From an uncultured Candidatus Saccharibacteria bacterium (GTDB lineage: Bacteria > Patescibacteriota > Minisyncoccia > Phycocordibacterales > JACOZG01), in NCBI GenBank assembly GCA_965230925.1, contig OZ246403.1, forward strand, positions 530,230-594,229: a stretch of 64,000 nt of DNA, in the 5' to 3' direction. The position numbers and the translations under genes were made by a program. The notes below the pieces were generated by a model. The model was not told where the DNA came from, did no database searches, and saw nothing but the letters and a program-made list of their open reading frames with translations. Shown in pieces: positions 1,761 through 42,695 of the stretch. Each line of letters starts with the position of its first letter. The first letter of the stretch is position 1.

Positions 1761-1875
1761 GAGTAGCCCCTCTCAATGTTCTATATTACCCCGCGATGCT
1801 CTCGCGGTGTGAGGCCACAAGCAATGCCCGTGACATTTCTAAACTAGATCACATAAAGTTTTTTGTCAAATTACT

Positions 1876-1904
1876 TTGAAAACAGTAGCTTTTTTATCTA
1901 AATC
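1876..1904 (+). promoter_or_regulatory. candidate sigma70-like promoter upstream of first SBP gene (TTGAAA-17-TAAATC)
   Basis: Hexamers ttgaaa (1876-1881) and taaatc (1899-1904) with a 17-nt spacer, about 40 nt upstream of the ATG at 1943. Weak match, by eye only. Confidence 0.2.
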
Positions 1905-1942
1905 GGCTATGATTGGGCCATTATTAGGCTAAAGCCAAAGGG

Positions 1943-3067
1943 ATGAAAAAAATTATTTGGATTATCGTTATTGTTGTCATCGTCGGACTTCTCGTTTGGT
2001 CCCGGCGGGGGGGCGAAACAGATAAGCCGGCAAATAGTATTGAACCGGTTAAGCTCGGGGTAATTATTTCTCAAACTGGGGTGGCCTCAGCTTTTGGTGA
2101 GATGTCGAAGTTTGGGATTGAAATGGCGGTAAAGGAGATTAATGAGGCGAGCGGAATGGCTACTCCGATGGTAGAAGTGGTCTATGAAGATGATCGGACG
2201 GATCCAAAAGCTGCTACCGGTCTCTACCAGAAACTAACGAGCATCGATAAGGTTGATGCGATTATTGGCAGCAACTTCGATTTCGTAACGCAACCCATTT
2301 TCGCTTTGGCTGAAACCACGGGTACGGTGGTGATCTCTCCTTCCTCCCCACGAATTCCTGGTGCCTTCGAGACCAATGCTAATAGTTTCGTGATGATGAG
2401 TGACTTCTCAAAAATTATTTCTGAACTCAAGCCGTATCTCACCGGCAAGTCATATAAGCAACTTGGTATTATTCACTTCGCTTCTGCCTTCGGTGCCGAG
2501 ATCACCAAGACGCTCAAAGAAATTAATGGGGGTTTGAACAAGCCAGAAGTGGTAGAAGAAACATACAATCAGATTGGAGGTAACGATTTCCGCACGGCAA
2601 TTCTGAAGCTTAAGACCGCTGGTGTGGATGTTTTGTTCCTCGATATGGCTGGTCCTGATCCCCTCACCTTTGTTCGTCAGGCCAAGCAACTTGGTTATGC
2701 GCCAACTTTGATTGCCGACACGGCAGTTAAGGATTCCCTCGCTGCCGCGGGGGCCGATCAATCGCTCTTTAATGGAGTGGTAGTGCTCAATTGGGATGTG
2801 ACGACAGATACCTTCGCCGCCAAGTTCCGTGCCCTCCACGGTCGCGACCCGGGTAACTCGGTGAATCGCGCTTATGACGCGGTGTATATTCTCGTTAATG
2901 CCGTATTGGCGACCGAGACTTCTCAAGAAATCCCTGCCTTCCTAGAGAAAACTCAATTTAATACGCCCAATGGCGACTTCCGCTTTAGCCCTGAGCACGC
3001 GGCGCTCAATACGCCTGTGGCAATCGAAGTTATTCAAGACGGTAAGTTTACGCCATTAGCAAATTAA
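1943..3067 (+). CDS. ABC transporter substrate-binding protein, Leu/Ile/Val-binding (LivJ/LivK, Peripla_BP_6) family, paralog 1, N-terminal TM anchor
   Basis: N-terminus MKKIIWIIVIVVIVGLLVW (hydrophobic anchor, no lipobox). It is followed by the PBP type-I signature KLGVIISQTGVASAFGE. Length 374 aa. Confidence 0.85.
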   Translation: MKKIIWIIVIVVIVGLLVWSRRGGETDKPANSIEPVKLGVIISQTGVASAFGEMSKFGIEMAVKEINEASGMATPMVEVVYEDDRTDPKAATGLYQKLTSIDKVDAIIGSNFDFVTQPIFALAETTGTVVISPSSPRIPGAFETNANSFVMMSDFSKIISELKPYLTGKSYKQLGIIHFASAFGAEITKTLKEINGGLNKPEVVEETYNQIGGNDFRTAILKLKTAGVDVLFLDMAGPDPLTFVRQAKQLGYAPTLIADTAVKDSLAAAGADQSLFNGVVVLNWDVTTDTFAAKFRALHGRDPGNSVNRAYDAVYILVNAVLATETSQEIPAFLEKTQFNTPNGDFRFSPEHAALNTPVAIEVIQDGKFTPLAN

Positions 3068-3071
3068 TAAT

Positions 3072-4181
3072 ATGAAAAAAATTATTTGGGTTATTGTTAT
3101 CGTTGTCATCATCGGGCTTTTTGTTTGGTCTGGAAGGAAGAAGGAGGGAACGACGCCAACGGGAACTGCTGAACCCTTGAAGATTGGCGCCATCTTGCCG
3201 CTCACTGGTCCGATTGCGAATGGGGGTGAGTTTGCGCGCCATGGCGCTGAACTCGCGCTTGAAGACGTGAATAAAGATGGAGAAAAAGTCCAGGTATTTT
3301 TTGAAGATTATCAATACGACGCGAAGCAGGCGGTGGGGACCTACAACAAGTTGCGTGACACTGACGGGGTGAATGCTATTTTCGCCTTTGGTACGCCAGC
3401 GGGAATGCCGCTTTCTCCGGTGGCCAATCAGGCAAAGGTTCCGCTCCTCACCATTCTCGCCGGCACGAGTTACTCTACGCCAAACGATTATACGTACCGA
3501 GTAGTGGGAAGTGGTAAGACGGATGCGAAAGCCGCGGTGGATGTTCTCGTAGATAAATTAGGGAAAAAGAAAATTGCCGTGGTGTCTCTCAACAATGACT
3601 ACGGTTCAGGCACCTTAGAAGAATTTAAGAAGCTTATTGTGGGGAAGGCTGAAGTGGTTGCGGCCGAGAGTGCGGCACCTGGCGTGACCGATTACCGCAC
3701 CCAATTAACTAAGGTGAAGGCGGCGAATCCTGATGCGATCTTCTTACCCACGCTTTATAAAGAAGGTGGGACAATTATCAAACAAGCGAAGGAAATGGGG
3801 ATTAACGCCACCTTCATGTGTGGTCAGCCCTGCGAGAATCCAGAATTTCTCGCTGCGGCAGGAGCGGCGGCGGAAGGGGCTTTTGTTATGACGCCGACGA
3901 ATCAAGATACGTATGGCTTCGGTACCCGCTACCAGGAGCGATATGGTATACCACCGAGCTATATTGCCTTGCGGAGTTACGATGCGATTAAGATGTTGGC
4001 CGCGGCGGCCGAAGGGTGCCGGGAGGGAAATTACGCGGGCGAGTGTTTGAAAATGAAGCTAGATAGCTTACGTAATTTCCCTGGCCTTTCATTCCCCATT
4101 ACCTTTGACGAGAATGGTGACATTACCGACATGTTCTCGATTAAGGTTGTTCGCGATGGAAAGTTCGTTCCTTATGAATAA
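3072..4181 (+). CDS. ABC transporter substrate-binding protein, LivJ/LivK family, paralog 2
   Basis: MKKIIWVIVIVVIIGLFVW anchor and LKIGAILPLTGPIANGGE motif. 4-nt spacing to previous gene. Confidence 0.85.
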   Translation: MKKIIWVIVIVVIIGLFVWSGRKKEGTTPTGTAEPLKIGAILPLTGPIANGGEFARHGAELALEDVNKDGEKVQVFFEDYQYDAKQAVGTYNKLRDTDGVNAIFAFGTPAGMPLSPVANQAKVPLLTILAGTSYSTPNDYTYRVVGSGKTDAKAAVDVLVDKLGKKKIAVVSLNNDYGSGTLEEFKKLIVGKAEVVAAESAAPGVTDYRTQLTKVKAANPDAIFLPTLYKEGGTIIKQAKEMGINATFMCGQPCENPEFLAAAGAAAEGAFVMTPTNQDTYGFGTRYQERYGIPPSYIALRSYDAIKMLAAAAEGCREGNYAGECLKMKLDSLRNFPGLSFPITFDENGDITDMFSIKVVRDGKFVPYE

Positions 4182-4206
4182 ATTAAAAGTTAATTATAAT
4201 TAAAAT

Positions 4207-5349
4207 ATGAAAAAGATAATTTGGATCATCGTTATTGTGGTAGTGATTGGTTTGCTTGTCTGGGCTGGGAAGGGAACCGATACCACCATGCCCCCGACTG
4301 GTTCCACCGAGCCGATTAAGATTGGCCTCGTTACACCGCTCACCGGTGATGCGGCTGCTTTGGGAGAGTTTATGAAAAATGTTACTGATCTCGCGGTAGC
4401 AGAAATAAATGAAGCTGGTGGGGTGAATGGTCAGATGATGGAAATTATCTACGAAGACGGTAAGTGTTCAGGAGCGCCGTCGGTAAGTGCTACCCAGAAA
4501 CTGCTCTCTAGCGATCAGGTAAAAATTATTATGGGTGCTGAGTGTAGTGGAGGAGTGTTGGCTATGTTGCCGGTGACTGATCAGGCAGGAGTTTTCGTTT
4601 TCTCGAGCAGTGCCACGAGCCCAGACTTGTCTGACAAGAGCCCGCTCTTTGCGAGAACTATCCCAAGCGATGCGAGCCAGGGACGAGTTTTGGCCGAGGC
4701 GGCTATTACCCGAGGGTGGAAGAAGGTTTTTGTGATTCAAGAATCTTCAGATTATGCTCTTGGTATCTTCCGAGCTTTTGAATCAAATTATCCCGCTACT
4801 GCCGGTACGATTACGAAAGAAGAATATCCAGCTAATACGACAGATTTCCGCTCCATTCTTGCTAAGGCTAAGACTGCTCAGCCAGATGCTATGCTCTTTA
4901 TCCCCCAATCGCCAGGAACGGCAGAGCGCCTGATTAAAAACTTCAGTGACCTGAAGTGGAACGTGCCGGTAATGGCCGACGACGTTATTGGTGGTAACCC
5001 TCCGCTCTTGTCTAACTTTAAGGATTCAGTAGAAGGAATGTTGGTAGCAGAGCAAGCCCTCGACCAGACGAATACCAAGTTTCAAACTTTAGACAGTAAT
5101 TACAAGACAAAATACAACAAAGAATTGGTTTACAAGACCTACGGTCAAGCTCAATACGATTTGGTCTACTTGGTTAAAGAGGGTCTCATGAAGTTCGGGA
5201 ATGATCCGATGAAGATTGCCGCTTGGGTGAGAACGGTGGCTGATTGGGAAGGTGCTTCGGGTAAAGTCACGATCGGCATGAATGGCGACCGGATTGGTGG
5301 CCATGTGGTAAGAGTGGTTGCTGGCGGTGTGGTGACAGACGTGAAATAA
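4207..5349 (+). CDS. ABC transporter substrate-binding protein, LivJ/LivK family, paralog 3
   Basis: MKKIIWIIVIVVVIGLLVW anchor and IKIGLVTPLTGDAAALGE motif. Confidence 0.85.
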   Translation: MKKIIWIIVIVVVIGLLVWAGKGTDTTMPPTGSTEPIKIGLVTPLTGDAAALGEFMKNVTDLAVAEINEAGGVNGQMMEIIYEDGKCSGAPSVSATQKLLSSDQVKIIMGAECSGGVLAMLPVTDQAGVFVFSSSATSPDLSDKSPLFARTIPSDASQGRVLAEAAITRGWKKVFVIQESSDYALGIFRAFESNYPATAGTITKEEYPANTTDFRSILAKAKTAQPDAMLFIPQSPGTAERLIKNFSDLKWNVPVMADDVIGGNPPLLSNFKDSVEGMLVAEQALDQTNTKFQTLDSNYKTKYNKELVYKTYGQAQYDLVYLVKEGLMKFGNDPMKIAAWVRTVADWEGASGKVTIGMNGDRIGGHVVRVVAGGVVTDVK

Positions 5350-6216
5350 GTGGACATCCTTCCTCAACTTATACTCAATAGTTTGATTGCGGGGGCGATC
5401 TATAGTTTGGTCGCGCTCGGATTCAACCTCATCTATAGTACGGTCAAATTTTTCGACCTCGGTTACGGCGCGCTCACGGCGGTGGGCGGGTATGCTACGT
5501 TCTTTCTCTTCAAGATGAACGGCTTTAATCTTTATCTCGCGGTCATCGCGGGGATGATTGTCGCTGGCTTCATCAGCTTCCTCGCCGATCGCTTGGTGTA
5601 TCGGCAGTTGCGCGCCCGCAAGGCTTCCGGCATGGTCTTCCTCGTCGCGGCGCTTGGGATTTTCACTTTGCTCCAAGCGCTCATTGCGATTTTCTTCACC
5701 AGCCAATTCCAGACGCTCTTCCCGGCGAGCGCGAGTTCTCAGGTCTACGACATTGGTGGTGCCGTGATTACCCACGTGCAACTGGTGATTCTCATCACCG
5801 GTCTCGTGCTCATGACCTTGCTCGGAATTCTCTTAAAGAAAACTTTGTTTGGTAAAGCGATTAAAGCGGTGGCTGATGATGAAGAGGTGGCGAAGATTGT
5901 GGGCATTAATACCAATACGATTATCAGCGCCGTGTTCTTCATCGGCGGCGCGATTGGTGGCCTCGCGGGGATTCTCGTTGGCTTCGATACCGGGATTGAG
6001 CCGACCATGGGCCTCTCGCTTCTCCTCAAGGGTGTGATTGCCTCGATTATCGGCGGGATCGGCAATATTTACGGCGGTGTCCTCGGGGCTTTCCTCCTCG
6101 GTGTGGTCGAGAACTTCGGTATCTGGAAAATTTCTGGCGAGTGGAAAGATGCGATCGCCTTCGCCCTGCTCATCGTGTTTTTGCTTTTTAGACCTAGTGG
6201 TTTATTGAGACGATGA
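5350..6216 (+). CDS. livH: branched-chain amino acid ABC transporter permease (LivH-like)
   Basis: GTG start directly after the SBP3 stop. The product is polytopic and ends ...LLFRPSGLL, typical of LivH/LivM permeases. Confidence 0.8.
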   Translation: MDILPQLILNSLIAGAIYSLVALGFNLIYSTVKFFDLGYGALTAVGGYATFFLFKMNGFNLYLAVIAGMIVAGFISFLADRLVYRQLRARKASGMVFLVAALGIFTLLQALIAIFFTSQFQTLFPASASSQVYDIGGAVITHVQLVILITGLVLMTLLGILLKKTLFGKAIKAVADDEEVAKIVGINTNTIISAVFFIGGAIGGLAGILVGFDTGIEPTMGLSLLLKGVIASIIGGIGNIYGGVLGAFLLGVVENFGIWKISGEWKDAIAFALLIVFLLFRPSGLLRR

Positions 6217-6261
6217 GCAGGGCGAGAAATCCGAAGCCCGAATATCGAAACTCGAAACAAT

Positions 6262-6630
6262 ATGCCAAGCACCGAAAATCAAAATTCAAAACGGTATGAC
6301 CTTGAAGAACGGACAAAGGCTTTCGCCAGACGCGTGAGGGACTTCGTGAAAGGTTTGCCGAGAACTACAGCCGTGTTTGAAGACAGTAAACAGGTGGTGC
6401 GGTCCTCGGGCTCGGTTGGGGCGAATTATATTGAGGCTAATGAGGCATTAAGTAAAAAAGATTTTCTAATGCGGATTAAAATTTGTCGTAAGGAAGCGAA
6501 AGAAACCGCTTTCTGGTTAGACTTACTAGAAGCGGGCGACAAGCTTGGTGACAGTGAGCGACGCAATTTGATCCAGGAAGCCAAAGAGCTTATGATGATC
6601 TTTGGGGCGATTTTAAAGAAGAGCGAATGA
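6262..6630 (+). CDS. four-helix-bundle protein (23S rRNA intervening-sequence protein / Avd-like family, TIGR02436)
   Basis: 122 aa with the family motifs SVGANYIEANEALSKKDFLMRIKICRKEAKETAFWL (compare GANIAEG...SKKDFI.F..IA.GS..E..T.L). Inserted between livH and livM and flanked by complementary repeats. Confidence 0.7.
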   Translation: MPSTENQNSKRYDLEERTKAFARRVRDFVKGLPRTTAVFEDSKQVVRSSGSVGANYIEANEALSKKDFLMRIKICRKEAKETAFWLDLLEAGDKLGDSERRNLIQEAKELMMIFGAILKKSE

Positions 6631-6703
6631 TGTTTATGATTTCCTTGTTTATAAATTTGAATTTGTTTCGGATTTCGAAATTCGAATTTCGTGCTTTTAA
6701 CTT

Positions 6704-7570
6704 ATGGAATACTTAATTCACCTCGCAATTCTTGTTGGCATCTACTCGATTCTCGGGATTAGTCTCAACTTGGTGGTTGGATTCACTGGCTTATTGAGCA
6801 TCACCCAAGCGGCCTTCTATGGTCTCGGTGCCTACGCCACGGCGATCTTGCTCACGAGCTTCGGGCTTAACTTCTTTCTTGCCACCATCATCGGCATTGC
6901 GCTCACCGCAGTCATAAGCCTTTTGGTTGGTCTTGTTTTGAGTCGCTTCCGCGGCGATTACTATGCGCTCGGTTCCTTCGGTTTCAACATTATTCTCTAC
7001 AGCATCTTTCTCAATTGGCAGTCGCTGACCCGCGGCCCGCTTGGCATCCCAGGCATCGGCCGGCCGAGTTTGTTTGGTTTCTCTTTTTCTTCCAATCTGT
7101 CTTTTCTCATTTTAACTTTCATCTTTGCTCTTTTGACTTTCCTTTTCTCCCGGTGGCTCACCACGTCTTCCTTCGGCCGCGTCCTCAAAGCCATTCGCGA
7201 AGATGAACCGGCGCTTCAAGTCTTTGGCTATCGTACCATTTACTTCAAGCTCGCGATTTTTGTAATTTCTTCCGGCGTGGCGGCGCTTGCGGGATCACTC
7301 TTCGCTTCCTACATTACCTTCATCGACCCGTCGAGCTTCGTTCTCTTCGAATCCATTTTTATCCTCGCCATTATAATCTTGGGTGGCCTCGCCAACCTCA
7401 AGGGCTCCGTCTTGGGCGCACTTTTTCTCATCCTCTTGCCTGAGGCCTTGCGCTTCGTCGGCTTCCCCTCCGACATCGCCGCCCAGATGCGCCAAGTGGT
7501 GTACGGCTTGATTCTCGTTCTCCTCATGCTCTACCGCCCGCAGGGATTGGTTGGAGAATATAAATTGTGA
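6704..7570 (+). CDS. livM: branched-chain amino acid ABC transporter permease (LivM-like)
   Basis: Polytopic membrane protein ending ...LYRPQGLVGEY. Followed by SBP genes and then the LivG-like ATPase. Confidence 0.8.
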   Translation: MEYLIHLAILVGIYSILGISLNLVVGFTGLLSITQAAFYGLGAYATAILLTSFGLNFFLATIIGIALTAVISLLVGLVLSRFRGDYYALGSFGFNIILYSIFLNWQSLTRGPLGIPGIGRPSLFGFSFSSNLSFLILTFIFALLTFLFSRWLTTSSFGRVLKAIREDEPALQVFGYRTIYFKLAIFVISSGVAALAGSLFASYITFIDPSSFVLFESIFILAIIILGGLANLKGSVLGALFLILLPEALRFVGFPSDIAAQMRQVVYGLILVLLMLYRPQGLVGEYKL

Positions 7571-7582
7571 TAAGGTAAAAAT

Positions 7583-8707
7583 ATGAAGAAACTCGTTTGG
7601 CTTATCGTTATCGTAGTAGTAATTGGTCTCATTGCTTGGGCGAGTACCAAATCCGAACCATCGATTACGGGCGAGACAATTAAGATCGGAGCCGTGTTGC
7701 CGATGACCGGAGCTGGGGCGGCGTATGGCGAGGATCAGAAGAGGGCAATTTCTTTGGCTGTAGAGGAGATCAATGCTGCTGACGGAATTGGTGGCCGGTT
7801 ACTTGAGGTAATTTACGAAGATGACCAAACTGATCCGAAGTTCTCGGTGTCAGCGGCACAAAAGTTGATTAATGTTGATGGGGTCAAAGTAATCATTGGT
7901 GGTGTCTGGGATCATTTGGCAAATGCTATTGCCCCAGTTATTGATCAAGAGAAAATTGTTTTGATCAGTCCATCAGTAAATGCGGACACGGTTGGTATCT
8001 CAAGCCCGTACTTTTTCATGACCTATCCGCCAGTGGCGAGTACTCGTCCGGCATTCGAAAAATTTTTAGCAAAATTTCCAAATGCCAAGGTGGTGACTAT
8101 GACTTGGAACAATAACTGGGGTCTCGGTAATGCGAAAGTTTTTAAAGAAGCGGTGGCGAAAACGGGTGGGCAGGTGGTGAAGGAAATCGTTTTGACGAAG
8201 CCAGATGGGAATGATATCCAACGCGAACTTACCTTACTCGCTCCACTGAATCCGGACATTATCTTCACGGTAATGAATTTCAGCGACACGGCTGTGTTTG
8301 CCCGAAAGAAGAGCGAATTGGGAATCAAGGCCACAGCCCTCAATCACTATAATCTAGCAACGGCATATCTCAACGGCCAAATTCCTAATGAATTTATGGA
8401 AGGGTTGTATGTATTTAAAAATTCTCCCTCGAGCACTGAGTTTGTCGAGAAATATAAGAACCGCTATCAGATGGAACTCCAAATTCCTGATGCCGACTCG
8501 GCCTACGACGCTGTTCAAGTAATTAAACTTGCGCTCGAGAATAATGAGGGTGATTACAGCGCCGAAACCTTAATGTCAGGAATTCATGCGATTAAGAATT
8601 ATCAAGGCGCTTCAGGTTTGATCGACTTCAGCCAAACCAATTACACCGAGAACAAAAAACCAGTGCTTGAATTATTCCAAGGTGGTAAATTTGTGGAAAT
8701 AAAATGA
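7583..8707 (+). CDS. ABC transporter substrate-binding protein, LivJ/LivK family, paralog 4
   Basis: MKKLVWLIVIVVVIGLIAW anchor and IKIGAVLPMTGAGAAYGE motif. Confidence 0.85.
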   Translation: MKKLVWLIVIVVVIGLIAWASTKSEPSITGETIKIGAVLPMTGAGAAYGEDQKRAISLAVEEINAADGIGGRLLEVIYEDDQTDPKFSVSAAQKLINVDGVKVIIGGVWDHLANAIAPVIDQEKIVLISPSVNADTVGISSPYFFMTYPPVASTRPAFEKFLAKFPNAKVVTMTWNNNWGLGNAKVFKEAVAKTGGQVVKEIVLTKPDGNDIQRELTLLAPLNPDIIFTVMNFSDTAVFARKKSELGIKATALNHYNLATAYLNGQIPNEFMEGLYVFKNSPSSTEFVEKYKNRYQMELQIPDADSAYDAVQVIKLALENNEGDYSAETLMSGIHAIKNYQGASGLIDFSQTNYTENKKPVLELFQGGKFVEIK

Positions 8708-9801
8708 AGAAATTTATCTGGATCATCGTCATTCTCGTTGTGCTCGTTTTACTTTTCTTAACCAATGTAAAACCTCAATCACCGACTTCTGATGGGCCAA
8801 TTAAAATCGGAGCAATTCTCCCTTTGTCGGGAGATTTTGGATCAATTGGGGAGGAGATTAGACGAGGAGCGGAACTGGCGGTTGAGGAACTTGGTAAACA
8901 GGGGAAAGAAATTATTTTAATCAGCGAAGATGACCAGTTTTTGCCAGTGAGAGCAGCTTCGGCAGCCAACAAATTAGCGGTGATTGATAAAGTGGACGCA
9001 GTGTTTACCGCCGTTGGCGAAGAGGCGCGGCCAGTTACCAAAATATTTAATGACAACAAAGTTCCTCTGCTGGTGGCCTTTGATAGTAATGAAGAACTGA
9101 AAAAGTCTGGTGACTACATTTTTAGTATCGGTTTCGGGACAGAAGCAAATGGAGAAAAGTTGGCTACCTATACTTATAACACGTTGGGTCTAAAGAAGAT
9201 CGCTGTTTTGAGTCATGTGGATAATGTGGCAGATATTTTATCCGAGGCGTTCAAAAACAAATTCACTCAACTGGGAGGGACAATCAGTTCTCACGATCGT
9301 ATTCAGACCACCGAAGACAATTTCCGTACCTATATTGTGAAGGTGAAAGCAGATCAACCCGATGGAGTGTATTTTGTGTTCCTTCCTCCCAGTAATGAAA
9401 TATTTCTGAAACAAACCGGTCAGCTTGGGCTAAAGACCACCCTCTTGGGCAGTGATGCCATCCAAAAGTTTGAGATTGAGAATGCTGGTCCAGCGGCAGA
9501 AGGCCTTATCTTTACAGGCTTTTATGTTGAGGATGAGGAAGGAATTACTCAGTTATACAAGAACAAGTTTGGTAAAGAGCCAGACAATCCGGCCTTTGTG
9601 GCTTCCGGCTACGATTCAATTATTACTCTGGCCGCTGGGAAAACTATTGCCAATGAAGAAAAGATTACGTTGCGAGAGGCGTTGATGCGCGTTAGCACCA
9701 ATGAGACCACCTTCCCAGTAAACATGAACGGCACCCAATTTTCTGAAAGGCTAGAAAAGATTTATAAAGTTACTAACGGCGAATCCCAAGTGATCGAATA
9801 G
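8704..9801 (+). CDS. ABC transporter substrate-binding protein, LivJ/LivK family, paralog 5
   Basis: ATGA overlap with previous gene. MKKFIWIIVILVVLVLLF anchor and IKIGAILPLSGDFGSIGE motif. Confidence 0.85.
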   Translation: MKKFIWIIVILVVLVLLFLTNVKPQSPTSDGPIKIGAILPLSGDFGSIGEEIRRGAELAVEELGKQGKEIILISEDDQFLPVRAASAANKLAVIDKVDAVFTAVGEEARPVTKIFNDNKVPLLVAFDSNEELKKSGDYIFSIGFGTEANGEKLATYTYNTLGLKKIAVLSHVDNVADILSEAFKNKFTQLGGTISSHDRIQTTEDNFRTYIVKVKADQPDGVYFVFLPPSNEIFLKQTGQLGLKTTLLGSDAIQKFEIENAGPAAEGLIFTGFYVEDEEGITQLYKNKFGKEPDNPAFVASGYDSIITLAAGKTIANEEKITLREALMRVSTNETTFPVNMNGTQFSERLEKIYKVTNGESQVIE

Positions 9802-9814
9802 AGTTATAAAAAGT

Positions 9815-10909
9815 ATGAAAAAATTAATCTGGATCGTCATTATCTTAATAATCCTTGGGGCGATTTGGTTTGTGGTTGGTAAACAAGAACCAGTGACTTC
9901 TGGTGAATCCATTAAGCTTGGTGTTATTGTCGGTACGAGTGGTCAATACGCTCCAGCCGGGGAGGCTTATGTCAAAGGTTTTAATTTGGCTTTAGAGCAA
10001 TGGAATAATTCTTCCCAAACACCTAAATTTGAAGCTGTTTTCGAAGATGATGGATTTGAAGCCGTAAAGGGATTATCGGCCTACAAAAAATTACGCGAGG
10101 CCAACAAAGTGAATGGATACGCTATTCTTTCTTCCTTCACTATTGATGCAGTCTACGATCTGGTTCATCAAGAGGATAAGCCAGTAGCGTTGGGATTTGA
10201 ACAAAGTCGGCCAGCTGAGGCCGATAATATTTTTCAAGTTTTGCCAGCAGCTAAACCGGTTCAGGCTGGCTTGGGACAGAAAATGAAAGAGTTGGGATAC
10301 CAGAAGCCGGCTGCCGCGGTGAGCAATAATACGCCCGTTTATCAAAATTTTTATGACGGCTTTAGAGAGGGTTACGGATCAGAAGTGCAGAAATTTGAAA
10401 TTGGGAGTGATGTTGGAGGGATTCGATCCCAGGCTTTGGCTTTGTTAGCCGCTCGGCCTGATGTTATCGCTTTCTTTATGGCACCCAAAGAGGGTGCTTT
10501 GTTGGTGAAAGAGATTCTAAAAATTACAACCTCGGAGAATCGACCTGATTTTGCTTTTGACCAAAGTGTGCAGTCGGGATCAACCGATTACCAATCTATC
10601 CTTGCCGGCGAACTCACAAAAATTGATGGTAGTCTCGTCTCTATGTCGAGGAATGATCTGAGCGAAATGTTCAAAAGTGCATTCAAAGAGAAATATAGTA
10701 TGGATGTACCATTTGGTGCTGATATGGGCTATAACTCCTTTACGCTTCTCGCGTCAACCTATGATTCTGACCCGAACATTTGGATTAATAATATGAAAAT
10801 GGCTCGTATCGCAGGCTCGGATGGTGAGATTTATTTTGATGAAAATGGTCTCAGAGTACCAAACATATTTTTTGGTACCATAAAGAACGGTCAGGTTCTT
10901 ACTCAGTAA
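9815..10909 (+). CDS. ABC transporter substrate-binding protein, LivJ/LivK family, paralog 6
   Basis: MKKLIWIVIILIILGAIWF anchor and IKLGVIVGTSGQYAPAGE motif. Confidence 0.8.
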   Translation: MKKLIWIVIILIILGAIWFVVGKQEPVTSGESIKLGVIVGTSGQYAPAGEAYVKGFNLALEQWNNSSQTPKFEAVFEDDGFEAVKGLSAYKKLREANKVNGYAILSSFTIDAVYDLVHQEDKPVALGFEQSRPAEADNIFQVLPAAKPVQAGLGQKMKELGYQKPAAAVSNNTPVYQNFYDGFREGYGSEVQKFEIGSDVGGIRSQALALLAARPDVIAFFMAPKEGALLVKEILKITTSENRPDFAFDQSVQSGSTDYQSILAGELTKIDGSLVSMSRNDLSEMFKSAFKEKYSMDVPFGADMGYNSFTLLASTYDSDPNIWINNMKMARIAGSDGEIYFDENGLRVPNIFFGTIKNGQVLTQ

Positions 10910-10912
10910 TTT

Positions 10913-11644
10913 ATGCCCACGCTGCAGACAAAAAATGTGGTGAAGCGTTTTGACGGGGTCCATGCGGTGGATCATCTTTCGGTTGAGTTCCGGCCCGGGG
11001 AAATTACGGGGATCATCGGTCCCAATGGCTCGGGCAAGTCGACTTTGATTAATACTCTCACTGGGATGATCCCGCTCGATGGCGGTGTAGTGAAAATTGC
11101 CGATACCGGGCTTGAACGGATTGAGGCCTTCGACGTTATTAATTACGGCATTACCCGCACCTTCCAAGACGTGCGACTCTTTGAGCAAATGCCGGTGCTC
11201 GACAATGTTCTGGTGGTGCTCACCGAGCGGCAGGTTTTTGCCTCGCTCTTCGAGCGTCATAGGGCTTTCCACCTCGAGCAGGCCGAGGCGGTGCTCACTC
11301 GTGTGGGTCTCTGGGGTAAGCGCCATGAACTGGCCGCCAATCTCTCCTACGGCCAGCGCAAGCTCCTCGAGATCGCCCGAGCGCTTGCGATGAAGGCCGA
11401 GATTTACTTTTTCGACGAGCCCTTTGCCGGTCTCTTCCCCGAGATGGTGAAGACGGTGGTGGTGGTGCTCCAGGAGTTGCGCGCGGCGGGGAAAGCGATT
11501 ATTCTCGTAGAGCACAATATGGACTTGATCCGCGAGCTTTCCGATCGGGTGATCGTGATGGATAGCGGTAAGCTCCTCGCCGAGGGTGAGCCAGAAGCGG
11601 TGCTGAAGCGGCCGGAAGTAATAGAGGCTTATTTAGGAGAATAA
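10913..11644 (+). CDS. livG: branched-chain amino acid ABC transporter ATP-binding protein (LivG-like)
   Basis: Walker A GPNGSGKST, ABC signature LSYGQRKLLEIARAL, Walker B IYFFDEP, H-loop VEHNM, and a C-terminal ...IEAYLGE. Confidence 0.85.
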   Translation: MPTLQTKNVVKRFDGVHAVDHLSVEFRPGEITGIIGPNGSGKSTLINTLTGMIPLDGGVVKIADTGLERIEAFDVINYGITRTFQDVRLFEQMPVLDNVLVVLTERQVFASLFERHRAFHLEQAEAVLTRVGLWGKRHELAANLSYGQRKLLEIARALAMKAEIYFFDEPFAGLFPEMVKTVVVVLQELRAAGKAIILVEHNMDLIRELSDRVIVMDSGKLLAEGEPEAVLKRPEVIEAYLGE

Positions 11645-11653
11645 TTTTTTAAT

Positions 11654-12739
11654 ATGAACAAAATCATTGGTTGGATTGTTGCGGTCATTCTGGTCGGTAT
11701 TATTGCCTGGACATTTGTTGGCAAAGATCAGCCGGCGGCAAACGGCTTTAATCTAGGACTAATTAGTATTTTGAGCGGGGATTATGCCGTGGTGGGAGAA
11801 AATATTCGCAATGGTGTGATTTTAGCTAGTGAAGAATACAATCAGGCTCATCCAGATGCCCAAATTAAACTTGTTACAGAAGACGATGGATTTAATGGTG
11901 GTAAGGGTTTGAGTGCCTATCGGAAAATGACCACGGTCGACAACATTGATGCGTTGATTAATGTTTCTACACCAACTATTGATGCAATTTACGAAGCGGT
12001 GACGGCGACGAAGTTACCGGTGATCCAGCTCGGTGAACAAGGCCGTGAGCCGAGTGATGATAATGTGATTGGTATCTTTCCGAGTAGTATTGCTTCGGAA
12101 TATGACTACGGTGTTTATCTGAGGAATAAAGGGATCACCCAGATGGACTTAGTGTATACCAATATCGATGCCATGGTTCGTTTCGTCGATAGCTTCAAGA
12201 AGGGTTTCCAAGGCCAAACGACTGATTTCATCATTCAAGCTGACGAGAAGGATCTTCGAACCCATGCTCTCAAGGTGGCCGTGGCTAATCCGTCTACCCT
12301 CGGCTTGTTCATTGTTCCTCAGCAAGGGGCGCAGTTTATGAAGGAATTTTTGAAGGTGAAGAAAACTGATCCACAGCTTTTCTTTGATGCCAATTTCCAA
12401 TCCGGCTTTTCTGATTATGAGCGGATTCTCGGTGATCTCACGGTCTTAGACGGAACCTTGGTTGGTACCGTAGATTCAACGGTTGCGGATTCATTTAAAG
12501 AGGCGTACAAAAAGCGCTTTAATTCTGATGCCGGATTTTTGGCCGATATGGGGTATGACGCCTTCAACCTTCTCGTTGCTACGCGCAATGCCGATCAGGT
12601 GGCGTGGCTCAATAATCTTAAGAAGGCTAATTATAGCGGAGTGAGCGGCAATATTCAGTTTGATCCAGCCGGCAATCGCCAACCAAAAACGAAAGTGATG
12701 GTGGTGAAAAATGGAGTGATTAGTGATCTAGAGCAATAA
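11654..12739 (+). CDS. ABC transporter substrate-binding protein, LivJ/LivK family, paralog 7 (MNK subgroup)
   Basis: MNKIIGWIVAVILVGIIAW anchor. The product has a PBP type-I fold, 361 aa. Confidence 0.8.
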   Translation: MNKIIGWIVAVILVGIIAWTFVGKDQPAANGFNLGLISILSGDYAVVGENIRNGVILASEEYNQAHPDAQIKLVTEDDGFNGGKGLSAYRKMTTVDNIDALINVSTPTIDAIYEAVTATKLPVIQLGEQGREPSDDNVIGIFPSSIASEYDYGVYLRNKGITQMDLVYTNIDAMVRFVDSFKKGFQGQTTDFIIQADEKDLRTHALKVAVANPSTLGLFIVPQQGAQFMKEFLKVKKTDPQLFFDANFQSGFSDYERILGDLTVLDGTLVGTVDSTVADSFKEAYKKRFNSDAGFLADMGYDAFNLLVATRNADQVAWLNNLKKANYSGVSGNIQFDPAGNRQPKTKVMVVKNGVISDLEQ

Positions 12740-12745
12740 ATTAAT

Positions 12746-13756
12746 ATGAACAAAGTCATCAAGATTATTATCGCCATTATTGTTCTCGGATTCTTGGTCT
12801 GGGCCGTGGGAACAAAGTCGGAGCCAAATGAGCCCGGAGAAAACACCCCGATCAAGATTGGTGTTATCGCACCGCTGACTGGTCCGGTGGCGGATTATGG
12901 TGAAGAGGTGCGCAAGGGCGTAATGGCTGGCGCTCCGGCGAGTGGTGTGGAATTTGTGTTTGAAGATGATAAGTGTGATCCGAAAGAGGCGGTCTCAGCC
13001 TTTAAGAAGCTCGCTGAGTTCGATAAGATGCAGTTCATCATTGGTCCGGCTTGTGGCTCGTCGCAAGAGGCGATTGTGCCCTTGCTCGCCGGGAAGGAAA
13101 TAATGACGGTGGTGCCAGCTGCGGCCTCTTCAGCTCTCTATGCGCAAAGTGGCAATAACTTTTTCAACATCCAGTACTCGCTCCAAGATGAATCCAAGTT
13201 CGTGGCCGAGAAAATGACCGCGCTCGGTTATACCAAGGTGGCGCTCGTGAGTTACGCCAATGCTTTCTCCAAGGCCCATGCCGACAGTTTCCGCGAGCAC
13301 TTCGCTGGCACTATTGCCATTGATTCCGTGATCACTGACGAGAACACCAATCTCGCCACCGAGGTGACCAAGATTAAAGCGGCGCGAGTAGACGCGATTT
13401 ACTCACCCGACATTTCTTTTTTCTTCGCGAGTGGTCTCGCTAAACTCCGTGAGCAAGGAGTGATTGCGCCTGTCTTTTCTACCTATGTAGTGGAGTTGCC
13501 GGCTGTGCGCGAGGTGGTGGCCGATGTAATGTATTCTTACCCCGCCGAGATTGCCGATACCGAAGCAGCGGTTTTTGGTCTCTCCAAGCGCGCGGCGGAA
13601 TTACTTTCTCAAACGGTGCTTGAATGCGAGGGTGCTTACCAATGCGTGCACGACAAACTCACCTCCTCTGGCCCCTTCGACCAAAACGGCATCTACCGCC
13701 GCAGCATGCTTCTGAAGCAAATTAAGAACAGTGTGCCGACCGTTATTAATAGTTAA
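12746..13756 (+). CDS. ABC transporter substrate-binding protein, LivJ/LivK family, paralog 8
   Basis: MNKVIKIIIAIIVLGFLVW anchor and IKIGVIAPLTGPVADYGE motif. Shorter at 336 aa. Confidence 0.75.
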   Translation: MNKVIKIIIAIIVLGFLVWAVGTKSEPNEPGENTPIKIGVIAPLTGPVADYGEEVRKGVMAGAPASGVEFVFEDDKCDPKEAVSAFKKLAEFDKMQFIIGPACGSSQEAIVPLLAGKEIMTVVPAAASSALYAQSGNNFFNIQYSLQDESKFVAEKMTALGYTKVALVSYANAFSKAHADSFREHFAGTIAIDSVITDENTNLATEVTKIKAARVDAIYSPDISFFFASGLAKLREQGVIAPVFSTYVVELPAVREVVADVMYSYPAEIADTEAAVFGLSKRAAELLSQTVLECEGAYQCVHDKLTSSGPFDQNGIYRRSMLLKQIKNSVPTVINS

Positions 13757-13765
13757 CGTATTATC

Positions 13766-14824
13766 ATGAACAAAACAATTGGCATCGTTGTCGCCATCAT
13801 CATTATTTTACTTATCGTCTGGGGAGTGAAGTCGAATCAACCCGCAGCACCCGGAGAAAATACGCCAATCAAAATTGGTGCCGTTTTACCTCTCACTGGC
13901 GGTGCGGCGGCTCTGGGTGAGCCAATGAAAAACGGAATGGAATTAGCGCTCAAAGATAAAAGTAATATCATTGTTCAGTATGAAGACAGTAAGGGGATAC
14001 CTGCTGAGGGTGCTTCGGCCTATCATCGTCTCATTGCTGGTGGAGTGAATGCTGTGGTGTCGGCTTATAGCAACGTGAGTGTGCCGCTTACGAAGATTGC
14101 CGAACAAAATAAAGTTCCGCTTCTGATGTCGCTCGTGGCTGCTGACAATGTCACCAATGAATATTCTTATCGTTACTATGCCACGGCGCAAAGTTATGTC
14201 GCCCCGGCCTTCACTGATCCTGCTTCGCCACTCAAGGATGTGACAGATATCGCCGTGATTTATCGTAATGATGAATATGGTAACTCAGTCAAAGCGCGGA
14301 TCACCGAGATGGCAGCGCAACATAATAAAAAGATTCTTATTGCTGAGCCTTATCAGACCAACGAAACTGATTTCTCTACCCATCTCACCAAGATTAAAGC
14401 AGCGAAGCCACAAGCGCTTCTCTTTGTTGATGGAACTCCAGCAGAAGGGGTGGCGATTCTAAAGAAAATTGATGAGTTAAAGCTAAATCTCTTGGTGATG
14501 GAAACGTCGGCAATCTTCTCTGATCCGGCCGTGCAGAAGCAGGCTCCGTTGATGACTTTTTACACCGCAGCTTTCCGCTTCTCACTTCCCGAAGACAACA
14601 CTGAATTTAAAAAGTTATATATGGACACGTATGGCACTTCACCCAACTTCGGTGCGGCTTTTGGCTACGATATTGGGACATGGCTTGCCGATTGCGTTGG
14701 TCAGGGTTCTGATGTTCAGCAATGTTTGTCGCAAACAAACTCCGTCAACGGCTTAACGGGTGAAATTACCAATATCACTAATCACGAAATTAATCCGCCC
14801 ATGTTCTTGGTGAAAGTGAACTAG
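13766..14824 (+). CDS. ABC transporter substrate-binding protein, LivJ/LivK family, paralog 9
   Basis: MNKTIGIVVAIIIILLIVW anchor and IKIGAVLPLTGGAAALGE motif. Confidence 0.8.
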   Translation: MNKTIGIVVAIIIILLIVWGVKSNQPAAPGENTPIKIGAVLPLTGGAAALGEPMKNGMELALKDKSNIIVQYEDSKGIPAEGASAYHRLIAGGVNAVVSAYSNVSVPLTKIAEQNKVPLLMSLVAADNVTNEYSYRYYATAQSYVAPAFTDPASPLKDVTDIAVIYRNDEYGNSVKARITEMAAQHNKKILIAEPYQTNETDFSTHLTKIKAAKPQALLFVDGTPAEGVAILKKIDELKLNLLVMETSAIFSDPAVQKQAPLMTFYTAAFRFSLPEDNTEFKKLYMDTYGTSPNFGAAFGYDIGTWLADCVGQGSDVQQCLSQTNSVNGLTGEITNITNHEINPPMFLVKVN

Positions 14825-14843
14825 ATTGTGGTAGAGTAGAAGG

Positions 14844-15941
14844 ATGAACAAAACCGTCGGTTGGATTATCGCGATAATTGTTATTGTTGGCGCTTTCTGG
14901 TGGCTCAACCGAGGCCCGATTTCCGGGCCTTCAACGGATGGTCCAATCAAGATTGGCGCCCCGCTGATTTTATCAGGAGATTTTGCCAAGTATGGTGAAC
15001 GAGCCAGACGATCGATTGATTTGGCGGTAGAGAAATTTAACCAAGAACATCCGGAGATTAATGTGCAAGTGGTGTATGAAGATACTCATGCGGATCCCAA
15101 GCAGGCAGTTTCGGCCTATCGAAAATTAGTTGATCTCGATAGGGTTCAAGCTATTGTTGGTCCCTTGTTGCAAGTAGAAATGGCGGCGCTTTTGCCCCAG
15201 ATTCAGCAGGATAATATTCCCGTGTTTAGTATGGCGCCCGTCACCCGTGACTTGCGTGCTGACACTTCGAATCCTTTGGTGATCTGGCCTGACCCCACGC
15301 TGGAGGCGGGGCAAATTGCTGAATACGTTTTTAACCAAGGAGTGAAGACCGTCGCAATTCTTGGTACGCAAGATAGTTGGGAGAATGAAGTTTCTGGAGC
15401 TTTTGCGAGTAAATTTACCGCGCCCGGTGGTACTGTGACCGCCCAAGAAATTGTTTTACCCACTGCAAGTGATGTGCGTTTGGCGGTAACTAAGGTTGTT
15501 GGGACGAAGCCAGAAGCCGTTTTTCTCGGCACGTATTACAAGTTTTTCCCTTTCATTAAATCTTTAAACGAACAGGGTTACAAAGGCAAACTGTATAGTA
15601 TCGAGATTGATACCTATCTCGCTGAAGAAGCGGGGGCGCTCGCGAACGGTTTGCGTTTTATTTCTCCAGACTTTTATACTCCAGGTTTTACCGCCGAATA
15701 TCAAAATCGGTATAGCGAAGTGCCAAGTTTACCCGCTGGCCAATCCCACGACGCCGCTCAAATTCTGTTGTCGCTTATTGCTGAAGGAAAAACAGGGGAC
15801 GATCTCATAGATGCTATGGGAGCCTTGAAAGAATTTAACGGTGTGTCTGGTAAAATTATTTTCACTGATGATCACCGCGCCACCTTCCCGCTTTCAATTT
15901 TTGAGCTCCAAGATGGCCAGATTAAAAAATTAGAAAATTAA
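14844..15941 (+). CDS. ABC transporter substrate-binding protein, LivJ/LivK family, paralog 10
   Basis: MNKTVGWIIAIIVIVGAFWW anchor and IKIGAPLILSGDFAKYGE motif. Confidence 0.8.
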   Translation: MNKTVGWIIAIIVIVGAFWWLNRGPISGPSTDGPIKIGAPLILSGDFAKYGERARRSIDLAVEKFNQEHPEINVQVVYEDTHADPKQAVSAYRKLVDLDRVQAIVGPLLQVEMAALLPQIQQDNIPVFSMAPVTRDLRADTSNPLVIWPDPTLEAGQIAEYVFNQGVKTVAILGTQDSWENEVSGAFASKFTAPGGTVTAQEIVLPTASDVRLAVTKVVGTKPEAVFLGTYYKFFPFIKSLNEQGYKGKLYSIEIDTYLAEEAGALANGLRFISPDFYTPGFTAEYQNRYSEVPSLPAGQSHDAAQILLSLIAEGKTGDDLIDAMGALKEFNGVSGKIIFTDDHRATFPLSIFELQDGQIKKLEN

Positions 15942-16669
15942 TGCCCACGGAAACCCTTCTTGAGCTTAAGAATATTCATGTTCACTACGGCGGGGTGCGG
16001 GCGCTGGATGGTGCGAGTGTGAAGGTGGACGAAGGAGAAGTGGTGGCTTTGATGGGGCCGAACGGTGCGGGCAAGAGCACGGCCTTGAAGGCGATGTTTG
16101 GTCTCGCGCCGATTGATGAAGGCGAGGTGCGCTGGCATGGGGAGACCATTAAACCGGTGCCGCACGAGGTGGTGGCGCGCGGGATTGCCTTTGTACCTCA
16201 GGGCCGGCGAGTCTTCCGTCATCTCACCGTGCTCGAGAATTTAGAAATTGGCGGCTTCGTGGTGAAGAATAAGAAGTTGATCGCTGAGCGGATTACAGAA
16301 GTGCTGGATCTCTTGCCCGCCTTGAAGCCCAAGCTCAAAGCCAAGTCGGGAACCTTAAGTGGCGGTCAGCAACAGATGCTCGCTATCGCTCGCGGGCTCA
16401 TGGTGGACCCAAAGGTTTTATTGCTCGACGAACCATCTTTAGGTCTCGCGCCGAAGATTGTGAAAGAAGTTTTCGAAGTAATTAAAGAAATTGGCGAGAA
16501 GCGACGGATTGCGATCGTGATCGTGGAGCATAATCTTAAGACTCTGCTCGCCATCGCCACTCGCGCCTATGTGCTAGATAAAGGGCGGGTGGCCGCCGAG
16601 GGTAAACCCGCCGACCTCTTATCTGCCGGTATTTTGCAAAAAGTGTTCTTGGGAGAAGCGGTAAGCTAG
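15941..16669 (+). CDS. livF: branched-chain amino acid ABC transporter ATP-binding protein (LivF-like)
   Basis: TAATG overlap with SBP10. Walker A GPNGAGKST and signature LSGGQQQMLAIARGL. The segment GIAFVPQGRRVFRHLTVLENLEIGGF is typical of LivF. Confidence 0.85.
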   Translation: MPTETLLELKNIHVHYGGVRALDGASVKVDEGEVVALMGPNGAGKSTALKAMFGLAPIDEGEVRWHGETIKPVPHEVVARGIAFVPQGRRVFRHLTVLENLEIGGFVVKNKKLIAERITEVLDLLPALKPKLKAKSGTLSGGQQQMLAIARGLMVDPKVLLLDEPSLGLAPKIVKEVFEVIKEIGEKRRIAIVIVEHNLKTLLAIATRAYVLDKGRVAAEGKPADLLSAGILQKVFLGEAVS

Positions 16670-16676
16670 GTTTTTG

Positions 16677-16748
16677 TGCGCGCTCTTGGATTCGAACCAA
16701 GGACCGGTCGTGTATAAGACGACTGCTCTACCGCTGAGCTAAGCGCGC
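16677..16748 (-). tRNA. tRNA with anticodon UAU (putative tRNA-Ile reading AUA)
   Basis: The rc folds as a cloverleaf: GCGCGCT-TA-GCTC-AGCGGTA-GAGC-A-GTCGT-CTTATAC-ACGAC-CGGTC-CTTGG-TTCGAAT-CCAAG-AGCGCGC-A. All four stems are Watson-Crick. Anticodon loop CUUAUAC gives UAU. No encoded CCA. Confidence 0.7.
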
Positions 16749-17664: not shown

Positions 17665-17687
17665 TAAATTTATCCACTTTCCCAAAA

Positions 17688-17715
17688 AGACCTCTCAACG
17701 GAGAGGTCTTTTTGT
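17688..17715 (+). terminator. rho-independent terminator (agacctctc-aacg-gagaggtct + T-run)
   Basis: Perfect 9-bp stem, 4-nt loop, followed by ttttt. Confidence 0.6.
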
Positions 17716-17732
17716 GTTATGATGTCGAGCGT

Positions 17733-29969: not shown

Positions 29970-29988
29970 GGCGGTTTATACTATCGGC

Positions 29989-42692: not shown

Positions 42693-42695
42693 GCC

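Follow-up and report, generated by a model that had tools for sequence, protein, structure and literature searches.

The E. coli livJ/livKHMGF system (LIV-I/LS; HAAT family, TC 3.A.1.4) is built from the same five protein families as the 14.7-kb gene block analyzed here, which occupies positions 1943-16669 of a 64,000-nucleotide stretch of contig OZ246403.1 (hereafter, the window). In E. coli, LivJ and LivK, two soluble periplasmic substrate-binding proteins (SBPs) that are about 80% alike and are encoded upstream of the transporter genes, feed one LivHMGF translocator; the livK-H-M-G-F genes are contiguous, and livJ lies nearby. The window block likewise couples more than one SBP to a single set of transporter genes, and one of its SBPs, denoted S3, keeps LivJ-like contact residues. 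It differs from the E. coli system in that ten SBPs, about 22% alike and carrying hydrophobic N-terminal helices, are encoded before livH, between livM and livG, and between livG and livF, and in that no NCBIfam equivalog is recognized among its proteins. We consider it probable that this block is a single HAAT-family (Liv/Urt-type) importer operon, with ten SBP receptor genes placed before and between the four transporter genes and with anchor-coding 5' ends that have been homogenized by gene conversion.

Several other described systems share individual features with this locus. In Borrelia, several receptors (OppA1-5) reportedly serve one translocator, OppBCDF, and we know of no report of 5'-end homogenization in the Opp or Dpp systems. 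Several SBPs with one translocator are also present in Pseudomonas aeruginosa (DppA1-A5 with DppBCDF; PMC4206461). Like the window block, the Dpp/Opp systems combine paralogous receptors of different specificities with one translocator, and some of these receptors are encoded in tandem beside it; unlike the window block, they include up to five SBPs of the peptide-binder cluster, which are lipoproteins or periplasmic proteins and are not interleaved with the transporter genes. In Rhodopseudomonas palustris, the ligands of an expanded Peripla_BP_6 family have been mapped beyond amino acids, for example, to aromatic acids and fatty acids (PMC3223731). The structures from this organism (4evq, 4ey3, and 4f8j) are divergent cluster-B SBPs and are the top structural neighbors of S7 from the window. 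However, R. palustris is a free-living organism with a large genome and SBPs distributed over many loci with their own transporters, whereas here the receptor genes are clustered in a single operon, and the genome is about 0.7 Mb in size.

The two remaining parallels concern the N-termini. In archaea and some monoderm bacteria, SBPs are reportedly held by an N-terminal hydrophobic helix, with no lipid anchor, as van der Heide and Poolman are said to have described in 2002. The window SBPs would be anchored in this manner, and the concerted evolution of anchors among unrelated paralogs lies outside that description. In the bab/sab/hop genes of Helicobacter pylori and the variable lipoprotein genes of mycoplasmas, the 5' leader or signal peptide region is shared or converted while the bodies differ. 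Those families function in antigenic or phase variation, whereas the window genes encode putative nutrient receptors in tandem, all apparently expressed; no silent copies or invertible sites were seen in the window SBP array.

All of the principles involved are thus known: an ABC importer can have several SBPs, SBPs can be tethered by a helix, and the 5' ends of genes in multigene families can undergo conversion. This locus is, accordingly, a newly described and extreme variant, not a system of a new kind. What appears to be new is the combination: a genome of about 0.7 Mb encodes 10-11 receptors with a mutual identity of about 22%, interleaving is lineage-wide, the pool comprises at least 92 receptor types, and conversion is confined to the anchor. 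A full-text search, with subscription journals mostly outside its scope, found no literature on interleaved SBP arrays or anchor homogenization in Patescibacteria.

Layout of the receptor array

The block consists of 15 tightly packed open reading frames (ORFs), all on the plus strand, in the order S1-S3, livH, an ORF of the 23S_rRNA_IVP family (hereafter, IVP ORF), livM, S4-S6, livG, S7-S10, and livF:

1761..1942, + strand: upstream intergenic region, 182 nt, the sole sizeable noncoding gap before the block; probable promoter region
1943..3067, + strand: S1, Peripla_BP_6, N-terminal helix MKKIIWIIVIVV... (Pfam E 3.1e-45)
3072..4181, + strand: S2, Peripla_BP_6 (Pfam E 9.4e-53)
4207..5349, + strand: S3, Peripla_BP_6, the most LivJ-like SBP, in the canonical slot directly before livH (Pfam E 5.1e-46)
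5350..6216, + strand: livH-like permease, GTG start, 0-nt gap after S3 (BPD_transp_2 E 1e-44; best NCBIfam match LivH/UrtB, below the equivalog cut-off)
6262-6630, with inverted repeats 6232..6691, + strand: 23S_rRNA_IVP/TIGR02436 four-helix-bundle ORF, 122 amino acids (Pfam and TIGR02436)
6704..7570, + strand: livM-like permease (BPD_transp_2 E 9e-47; best NCBIfam match LivM, LivM/UrtC-like)
7583..8707, + strand: S4, Peripla_BP_6 (Pfam E 7.4e-51)
8704..9801, + strand: S5, Peripla_BP_6, start overlapping the S4 stop by 4 nt (Pfam E 8.3e-46)
9815..10909, + strand: S6, divergent Peripla_BP_6 (Pfam E 2.4e-18; no NCBIfam match)
10913..11644, + strand: livG-like ATPase (ABC_tran and BCA_ABC_TP_C; best NCBIfam match UrtD/LivG)
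11654..12739, + strand: S7, divergent Peripla_BP_6 (Pfam E 1.9e-26; no NCBIfam match)
12746..13756, + strand: S8, short Peripla_BP_6, 336 amino acids (Pfam E 7.5e-26)
13766..14824, + strand: S9, Peripla_BP_6 (Pfam E 1.6e-38)
14844..15941, + strand: S10, Peripla_BP_6, stop overlapping the livF start by 1 nt (Pfam E 1.6e-47)
15941..16669, + strand: livF-like ATPase, last gene of the block (ABC_tran E 2e-34; best NCBIfam match UrtE/LivF)

All ten S proteins (336-380 amino acids) match Peripla_BP_6 above the gathering score (67-180 bits versus 31.7; E-values from 2e-18 to 9e-53), and none was placed in an unrelated family. A first-pass annotation of the window had proposed ten co-directional SBP genes of this family with a single H-M-G-F set, grouped as three before livH, three before livG, and four before livF; both the Pfam matches and the coordinates agree with this description, to which the IVP ORF, not mentioned there, adds the 15th ORF. 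The canonical liv architecture, with SBP genes upstream only and contiguous H-M-G-F, was not found here: three SBP genes lie between livM and livG, and four between livG and livF. The two BPD_transp_2 permeases and two ABC ATPases (one with the BCA_ABC_TP_C domain) encoded beside the SBPs provide the makeup of a HAAT-family importer of the LivHMGF/UrtBCDE type. The scores of all four transporter proteins are far below the NCBIfam equivalog cut-offs (LivH, 122 versus 379; LivM, 173 versus 366; LivG, 194 versus 362; LivF, 199 versus 441), so that the substrate class is not transferable by homology.

The gaps between the genes range from -4 to 25 nt, except around the IVP ORF, where they are 45 and 73 nt. 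The counts of internal promoter-like and terminator-like sites equal those expected from shuffled sequences, and a division of the block by such sites was rejected for this reason. The layout fits one long operon; given the short gaps, the block would be transcribed as one unit and would be, in part, translationally coupled. A redoxin gene (1251-1760, minus strand) is divergent from S1 across the 182-nt intergenic region, in which one weak sigma-70-like site, of a kind not enriched compared to shuffled sequences, is located at 1830-1859.

It is hardly conceivable that the array is an assembly artifact, produced by expansion or chimeric joining of fewer genes. No support for this explanation was found, although the short shared 5' repeats described below might, in principle, mislead assemblers. 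Across the entire block, contigs assembled from three sequencing runs match the window exactly (up to 17.5 kb, 0 mismatches), which dispels the suspicion of mis-assembly raised in the first-pass annotation, and the exact LivM protein is recorded on six contigs. The shared tracts in the window are at most 59 nt long and at most 88% identical, and the SBP bodies are just 34-48% identical in DNA, so repeat collapse or expansion cannot have made the array. Furthermore, each SBP gene has its own orthologs elsewhere.

The IVP ORF is recognized with high scores by both Pfam (23S_rRNA_IVP, 53.4 bits, cut-off 33.8) and TIGR02436 (74.6 bits, cut-off 24) and is bracketed by 29-nt inverted repeats (6232-6260 and 6663-6691) that are 79% complementary. 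IVP-family ORFs are present at the same livH-livM junction, on the same strand, in ten loci (the window and nine relatives) and nowhere else in the loci examined. The element looks like an intervening-sequence-like insertion lodged in an mRNA operon, with RNase III processing between livH and livM as a possible role. Avd proteins, which we take to be members of the same family, were the lead behind a search for a diversity-generating retroelement. This candidate was rejected: a direct-repeat scan of positions 1-22000 recovered the anchor family discussed below, a 161-nt repeat in surface protein genes, and short chance-level matches, with no template/variable-repeat pair, and no reverse transcriptase was detected among the ORFs examined, which did not include every ORF of the window. 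Also rejected was an insertion or intron in livM, suggested by matches of about 1,240 nt, compared to 864 nt, in 12 loci; in these, the true match had been joined with a weak match to the 3' end of the paralogous livH.

Interleaved loci and receptor types across the lineage

A LivM scan with one genome per species, which included 476 LivM-positive loci, yielded 80 loci, nearly all from Patescibacteria metagenome-assembled genomes, that were annotated with profiles built from the window proteins. Across these Paceibacterota loci, livM is 69-85% identical. Forty loci, including the window, are complete in having all four transporter genes on one strand. Of these 40, 31 have one or more SBP genes inside H-M-G-F, and the remaining 9 have the canonical S-H-M-G-F order. 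On average, a complete locus has 1.5 SBP genes in the slot before H (maximum 5), 0.15 in the H-M slot (maximum 3), 1.4 in the M-G slot (maximum 4), and 0.7 in the G-F slot (maximum 4). The window, with slot occupancies of 3/0/3/4 and ten SBPs altogether, has the largest total among the complete loci. Given the prevalence of interleaving, the window represents the extreme of a common pattern rather than a one-off, and the split operon described in the first-pass annotation, now followed through comparative genomics, is real and a trait of the lineage.

Some receptor families are tied to particular slots. All 23 members of the largest family are located before H, as are 8 of the 9 members of the S3 family, and 9 of the 11 members of the S8 family follow G. 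The S1, S7, and S10 families are found in several slots. The position of an SBP gene in the operon is thus only partly conserved.

Many of the relatives also encode regulators of the TrmB family (winged-helix proteins of about 250-290 amino acids, Pfam TrmB). Altogether, 93 such genes were detected in 39 of the 80 loci, for example, in L005, L008, L013, and L025, where they lie between SBP genes. In 76 of the 93 cases, the regulator gene lies immediately upstream of an SBP gene and is oriented divergently from it; TrmB genes are never located directly upstream of G or F and rarely upstream of H. The repeated modules of a regulator gene divergent from an SBP gene in many genomes imply receptor-by-receptor control. 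No TrmB-type regulators were detected inside the window block with a profile built from the regulators of its relatives; hence, the ten receptors are probably co-expressed.

The SBP bodies are highly diverged, as proposed in the first-pass annotation, with a mean amino acid identity of 22% among S1-S10 (range 16-35%; DNA identity 34-48%). The best orthologs of each window SBP in other genomes are far closer, at 43-74% identity. The 276 full-length SBPs encoded in the loci form 92 clusters at 45% or greater identity, of which 51 are singletons, with about one member per genome in each cluster. The arrays have therefore been built from ancient families and not through recent tandem duplication; the SBPs, as shown here, represent old orthogroups that are distinct from each other and come from a pool of at least 92 types across the lineage. 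The S7 orthogroup is the most widely conserved in the lineage (18 members in 18 genomes, up to 74% identity), whereas S2 is a rare type with one ortholog (57%). The S6 orthologs are 64-67% identical, and S6 and S7 are each other's closest bodies in the window (35%); the S1 orthologs are 44-55% identical. The motifs in the first strand-loop region are family specific: GAIISETGVA is common to the S1 orthologs, GVIAGTTGQYAPAG to those of S6, and PLILSGDFAKY to those of S10, and GLISILSGDYAVVGE is a further motif of this kind. An eleventh Peripla_BP_6 gene is present in the same genome outside the operon (L001, 565-1671), upstream of window position 1 and beyond smpB and ftsH; its N-terminus, MRTTTKWIGVIVIIILIVWG, is related to, yet different from, those of the operon SBPs.

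We compared the SBPs with the ligand contact residues of E. coli LivJ (Y18, C78, S79, A100-T102, Y150, Y202, and E226). In this alignment, S3 retains the equivalents of C78, S79, A101, T102, D121, and Y150; S8 retains Y18, C78, and A101; and the remaining eight SBPs differ at most contact positions. The residues at these positions are largely conserved inside an orthogroup and different between orthogroups. That the SBPs take different ligands is well supported as an inference from these residues and from the 43-74% orthologs, which fits the many ligand-specific receptors envisaged in the first-pass annotation. S3 is predicted to be LivJ-like, with an amino-acid-like ligand, and no ligand can be named for the other nine.

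Structural comparisons lead to the same family. Among the SBPs tested, the best PDB sequence matches are 4gnr for S1 and S3 (for S3, against this LivJ structure, E 6e-26), 4ey3 for S7, and 3hut for S10. The AlphaFold2 (AF2) model of S7, the one SBP that was modeled, adopts the two-lobe type I fold with a predicted local distance difference test score (pLDDT) of 92.3. A Foldseek search with this model retrieved, with a probability of 1.00, the cluster-B SBPs 4evq, 3hut, 3td9, 4gnr, and 2liv, at 14-20% identity. These structural neighbors bind 4-hydroxybenzoate, leucine, fatty acid, 2-keto acids, urea, or amides, in line with the range of the cluster-B structural family, which covers amino acids, 2-keto acids, aromatic acids, fatty acids, urea, and amides. 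Transfer of a ligand from the solved structures was rejected because of the 14-20% identity of the S7 model to its structural neighbors and the weak sequence match of S7 (E 9e-8).

In the mechanism we favor, each SBP type would capture a different small solute, with S3 as a LivJ-like amino acid binder, and all ten would deliver to one LivH-LivM channel powered by LivG-LivF. The step from ten receptors to one importer is based on gene linkage and on what is known of the family. It could also be argued that LivHMGF does not use most of the ten proteins as transport receptors and that these are instead sensors, host-surface or adhesion proteins, or receptors of another translocator, kept in the operon only for co-expression. 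The LivJ-like pocket is kept by S3 only, S6 and S7 have no NCBIfam match, and the fold is shared with nontransport receptors, with AmiC and GABA-B among the structural matches of S7. Nevertheless, we regard this possibility as quite improbable, given that the SBP genes in the 80 loci nearly always share the direction of H, M, G, and F and closely adjoin them, that no signaling domain recognizable with Pfam is fused to any of the ten, and that importers with multiple SBPs are well documented, DppA1-A5 with DppBCDF being an example (PMC4206461).

The N-terminal segments and their separate evolution

All ten SBPs begin with M(K/N)K, followed by about 16-19 hydrophobic residues, a polar linker of about 9-16 residues rich in Pro, Gly, Ser, and Thr, and the first strand. 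None of the ten contains Cys within the first 40 residues, and thus, there is no lipobox, which bears out the first-pass annotation on this point. In the AF2 model of S7, residues 2-22 form one continuous helix, the pLDDT reaches its minimum at the disordered positions 23-26, and the first strand starts at residue 32. The neighboring secreted proteins (16861, 17733, and 20729) have shorter, Ala/Leu-rich signal peptides ending in AxA; the N-termini of the SBPs are unlike these and accordingly form a separate class.

Monoderm bacteria and archaea tether their SBPs, and an SBP released from a cell that has neither an outer membrane nor a lipid anchor for it would serve the importer poorly. Retention of the helix as a membrane anchor would, therefore, be functionally sensible for a cell without an outer membrane. 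We infer that each SBP is exported and remains tethered to the membrane by its hydrophobic helix (about 20 residues), with the polar linker coming next; this step draws on the lack of a lipobox, the expected loss of free SBPs, and the dissimilarity to the AxA peptides of the neighbors. Alternatively, the N-termini could be cleavable Sec signal peptides, with the mature SBPs free in a space bounded by the wall or S-layer or lost to the medium or the host interface. They do resemble long Gram-positive signal peptides, with two basic residues, about 16 hydrophobic residues, a Gly about six positions before V-W-A, A-W-A, or V-W-S, and a polar stretch. This alternative appears unlikely because, compared with the neighboring AxA peptides, the hydrophobic core is extended and richer in beta-branched residues, the predicted S7 helix is uninterrupted, and released SBPs would be inefficient.

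The putative anchors evolve differently from the bodies. Over the first 20 residues, the mean amino acid identity is 51%, compared to 22% in the bodies, and the DNA identity is 51-88%, compared to 34-48%. A repeat search identified the corresponding DNA as a family of direct repeats:

1943..2001, + strand: reference copy (start of S1) of the 59-nt anchor-coding direct-repeat family D1 (repeat finder)
3072-3130: copy at the start of S2, 88% identical to the reference
4207-4265: copy at the start of S3, 75%
7583-7641: copy at the start of S4, 69%
8704-8762: copy at the start of S5, 64%
11654-11712: copy at the start of S7, 61%

A degenerate anchor pattern matches five SBP starts and nothing else in the 64 kb, with zero matches expected. 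When only the first 22 residues are compared, the ten SBPs have a similarity of 0.451, and S1-S4 one of 0.70. The controls were lower: 0.315 +/- 0.008 when the sequences were shuffled with their composition preserved (maximum 0.339), 0.323 +/- 0.024 for sets of ten SBPs drawn at random from other genomes (maximum 0.393), and 0.37 when each SBP was compared with its own best ortholog. An effect of composition alone was rejected, as the shuffles and random sets stay below 0.451. Two subtypes are distinguishable, MKK..W (S1-S6) and MNK (S7-S10), and these track position rather than body relatedness: S6 and S7, the closest bodies, have different anchor types. Indeed, anchor similarity and body identity are uncorrelated in the window (rho 0.06). 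The first-pass annotation had described the N-termini as conserved above the bodies, which holds, and strongly so at the nucleotide level, which applies to S1/S2, more weakly to S3/S4, and not to the MNK subtype, which is only modestly conserved (0.45).

Comparison across all loci clarifies the pattern. Between genomes, the anchors of orthologs are about as similar as those of nonorthologs (0.335 and 0.322), whereas the mean for paralogs within a genome is 0.373, reaching 0.457 in the window and up to 0.73 elsewhere. The putative anchors, thus, cluster by genome, not by orthogroup. Among pairs with a body identity below 35%, at least 85% identity over the first 60 nt was found in 10 of 606 within-genome pairs but in none of 35,410 cross-genome pairs; the ten pairs come from 7 of 55 genomes, the window included. 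The near-identical tracts outside the window are located at the starts of the following paralogs:

L066: 7986 and 10289
L068: 1589 and 2753
L038: 3343 and 6406
L078: 4099 and 7652; 13610 and 14755 (two pairs)
L043: 6510, 7668, and 8773

In these five relatives, the tracts are 93-100% identical over 60-125 nt, and the bodies are 25-31% identical at the amino acid level. The five clearest pairs use the same codon at all, or all but one or two, of the synonymous positions (14/14 to 18/18). The tracts begin at, or a few bases before, the ATG (in L038, about 95 nt of the upstream leader are included) and stop abruptly 60-125 nt into the gene. Such sharp, near-identical 5' tracts, found within but not between genomes, point to short-tract gene conversion or recombinational replacement of the anchor module. 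Concerted evolution of this kind is seen in all five relatives and, in the window, for S1/S2 only. There, the first 60 nt are 87% identical, with the same codon at 10 of 14 synonymous positions (p=0.025), which is the sole nucleotide-level signal in the window. Recent gene conversion across all ten window genes was considered and rejected, given that same-codon use at identical residues is 0.41 in the anchors and 0.40 in the bodies, and S1/S2 alone stand out.

We therefore considered whether selection or convergence alone, without DNA exchange, could account for the similarity of the anchors, through constraints such as Sec/SRP targeting, translation initiation, or membrane thickness. Consistent with this view, synonymous identity in the window is the same in the first 20 codons as in the body, also when S1-S4 are pooled (29/72 = 0.40), and MKK or MNK followed by an I/V/L-rich helix is generic, being found in all 276 SBPs of the lineage. 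However, orthologs, which are subject to the same constraints, have anchors no more alike than nonorthologs, the positional similarity in the window is far above that of the composition shuffles, and S1/S2 share more codons than expected. Moreover, of the seven genomes with nucleotide-level tracts, the six other than that of the window are inexplicable by protein-level selection. We consider it rather unlikely that selection acted alone. The first-pass annotation had left the choice between gene conversion and selection open as the cause of the constant anchor; the genome-wise clustering and the 93-100% tracts in the relatives support this proposal. The anchor-coding 5' ends thus evolve apart from the bodies and, as the relatives show, are homogenized within a genome by short-tract gene conversion. 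For the window, the most economical scenario would be older conversion events, the latest detectable one involving S1/S2, followed by purifying selection on the helix, so that the remaining anchor similarity would be held at the amino acid level.

Several observations weigh against the overall reading of one importer with ten tethered, conversion-homogenized receptors. The endings V-W-A, A-W-A, and V-W-S conform to the -3/-1 rule of signal peptidase I, and cleavage is, accordingly, possible. The 64 kb covered are part of a genome in which other HAAT translocators or an Lgt/Lsp pathway could be encoded elsewhere. The pocket positions in the C-terminal lobe depend on a low-identity alignment. 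The equality of same-codon use in anchors and bodies confines recent conversion in the window to S1/S2, and anchor similarity falls only weakly with distance (rho -0.25, p=0.06).

A more far-reaching possibility, which we regard as doubtful, is that the locus is a cassette-like receptor array in which the anchor-coding 5' segments function as recombination handles, or else that the anchor is a genome-specific docking element co-evolving with LivHM. In the cassette version, the SBP types (at least 92), in many genomes each with its own divergent TrmB regulator, may be gained, lost, and moved between fixed operon slots, and the homogenized 5' segments, sometimes together with the upstream leader, may enable the exchange. 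If either version were true, CPR (Candidate Phyla Radiation) cells would possess a dedicated mechanism for rapid retuning of their scavenging.

Genome context and implications for CPR biology

The organism is a member of Patescibacteria/Paceibacterota (CPR), a lineage with reduced genomes. The LivM protein has hundreds of relatives at 75-95% identity, and the named ones belong to Candidatus Paceibacterota, Nomurabacteria, or the 'Patescibacteria group'. A contig of 715,934 bp encodes an identical LivM protein; this length is in keeping with a small CPR genome (about 0.7 Mb). Other window genes also fit a CPR genome, namely, those for huge PKD-repeat surface proteins, dockerin-like secreted proteins, MurJ, RecG, and a class II ribonucleotide reductase.

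Immediately downstream of livF and convergent with it, ARAGORN predicts a tRNA-Ile(UAU) at 16676-16748 on the minus strand. In most bacteria, AUA is read by a modified CAU tRNA, and a tRNA-Ile(UAU) would thus be unusual. Just beyond, a direct repeat of 161 nt (17934-18094 and 20882-21042, 80% identity) is shared by two neighboring genes for secreted proteins, which are paralogous surface proteins with PG_binding_1 and dockerin-like or PKD domains. An ORF listed at 17607-19646 overlaps the preceding gene; translation more likely begins at 17733 (MKKFTLLSLFLALIFISPIAARA), which yields a normal signal peptide. Two further secreted proteins, both very large (1088 and 1449 amino acids), are encoded in 29923-37641; they are composed of many PKD/K319L-like repeats, with LVIVD repeats also present in the first, and resemble the surface or adhesion proteins typical of CPR bacteria. 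Over 40001-44000, across the genes for a TPR protein and MurJ and next to the RNase P RNA gene (40113-40469), the AT skew is strongly negative (-0.30 to -0.32), probably owing to the T-rich codons of membrane proteins.

What CPR/Patescibacteria import is a central question, as these mostly uncultured organisms lack most biosynthesis. Here, about 15 kb of a genome of about 0.7 Mb is spent on what would be one importer with ten or eleven receptors, and the receptor set varies by genome. The question of what they import becomes concrete with this locus because the soluble ectodomains can be expressed for ligand screening. The array also offers a natural example of two modes of evolution in one gene, with an anchor module that is homogenized within a genome by short-tract conversion and a ligand-binding body that is ancient and distinct.

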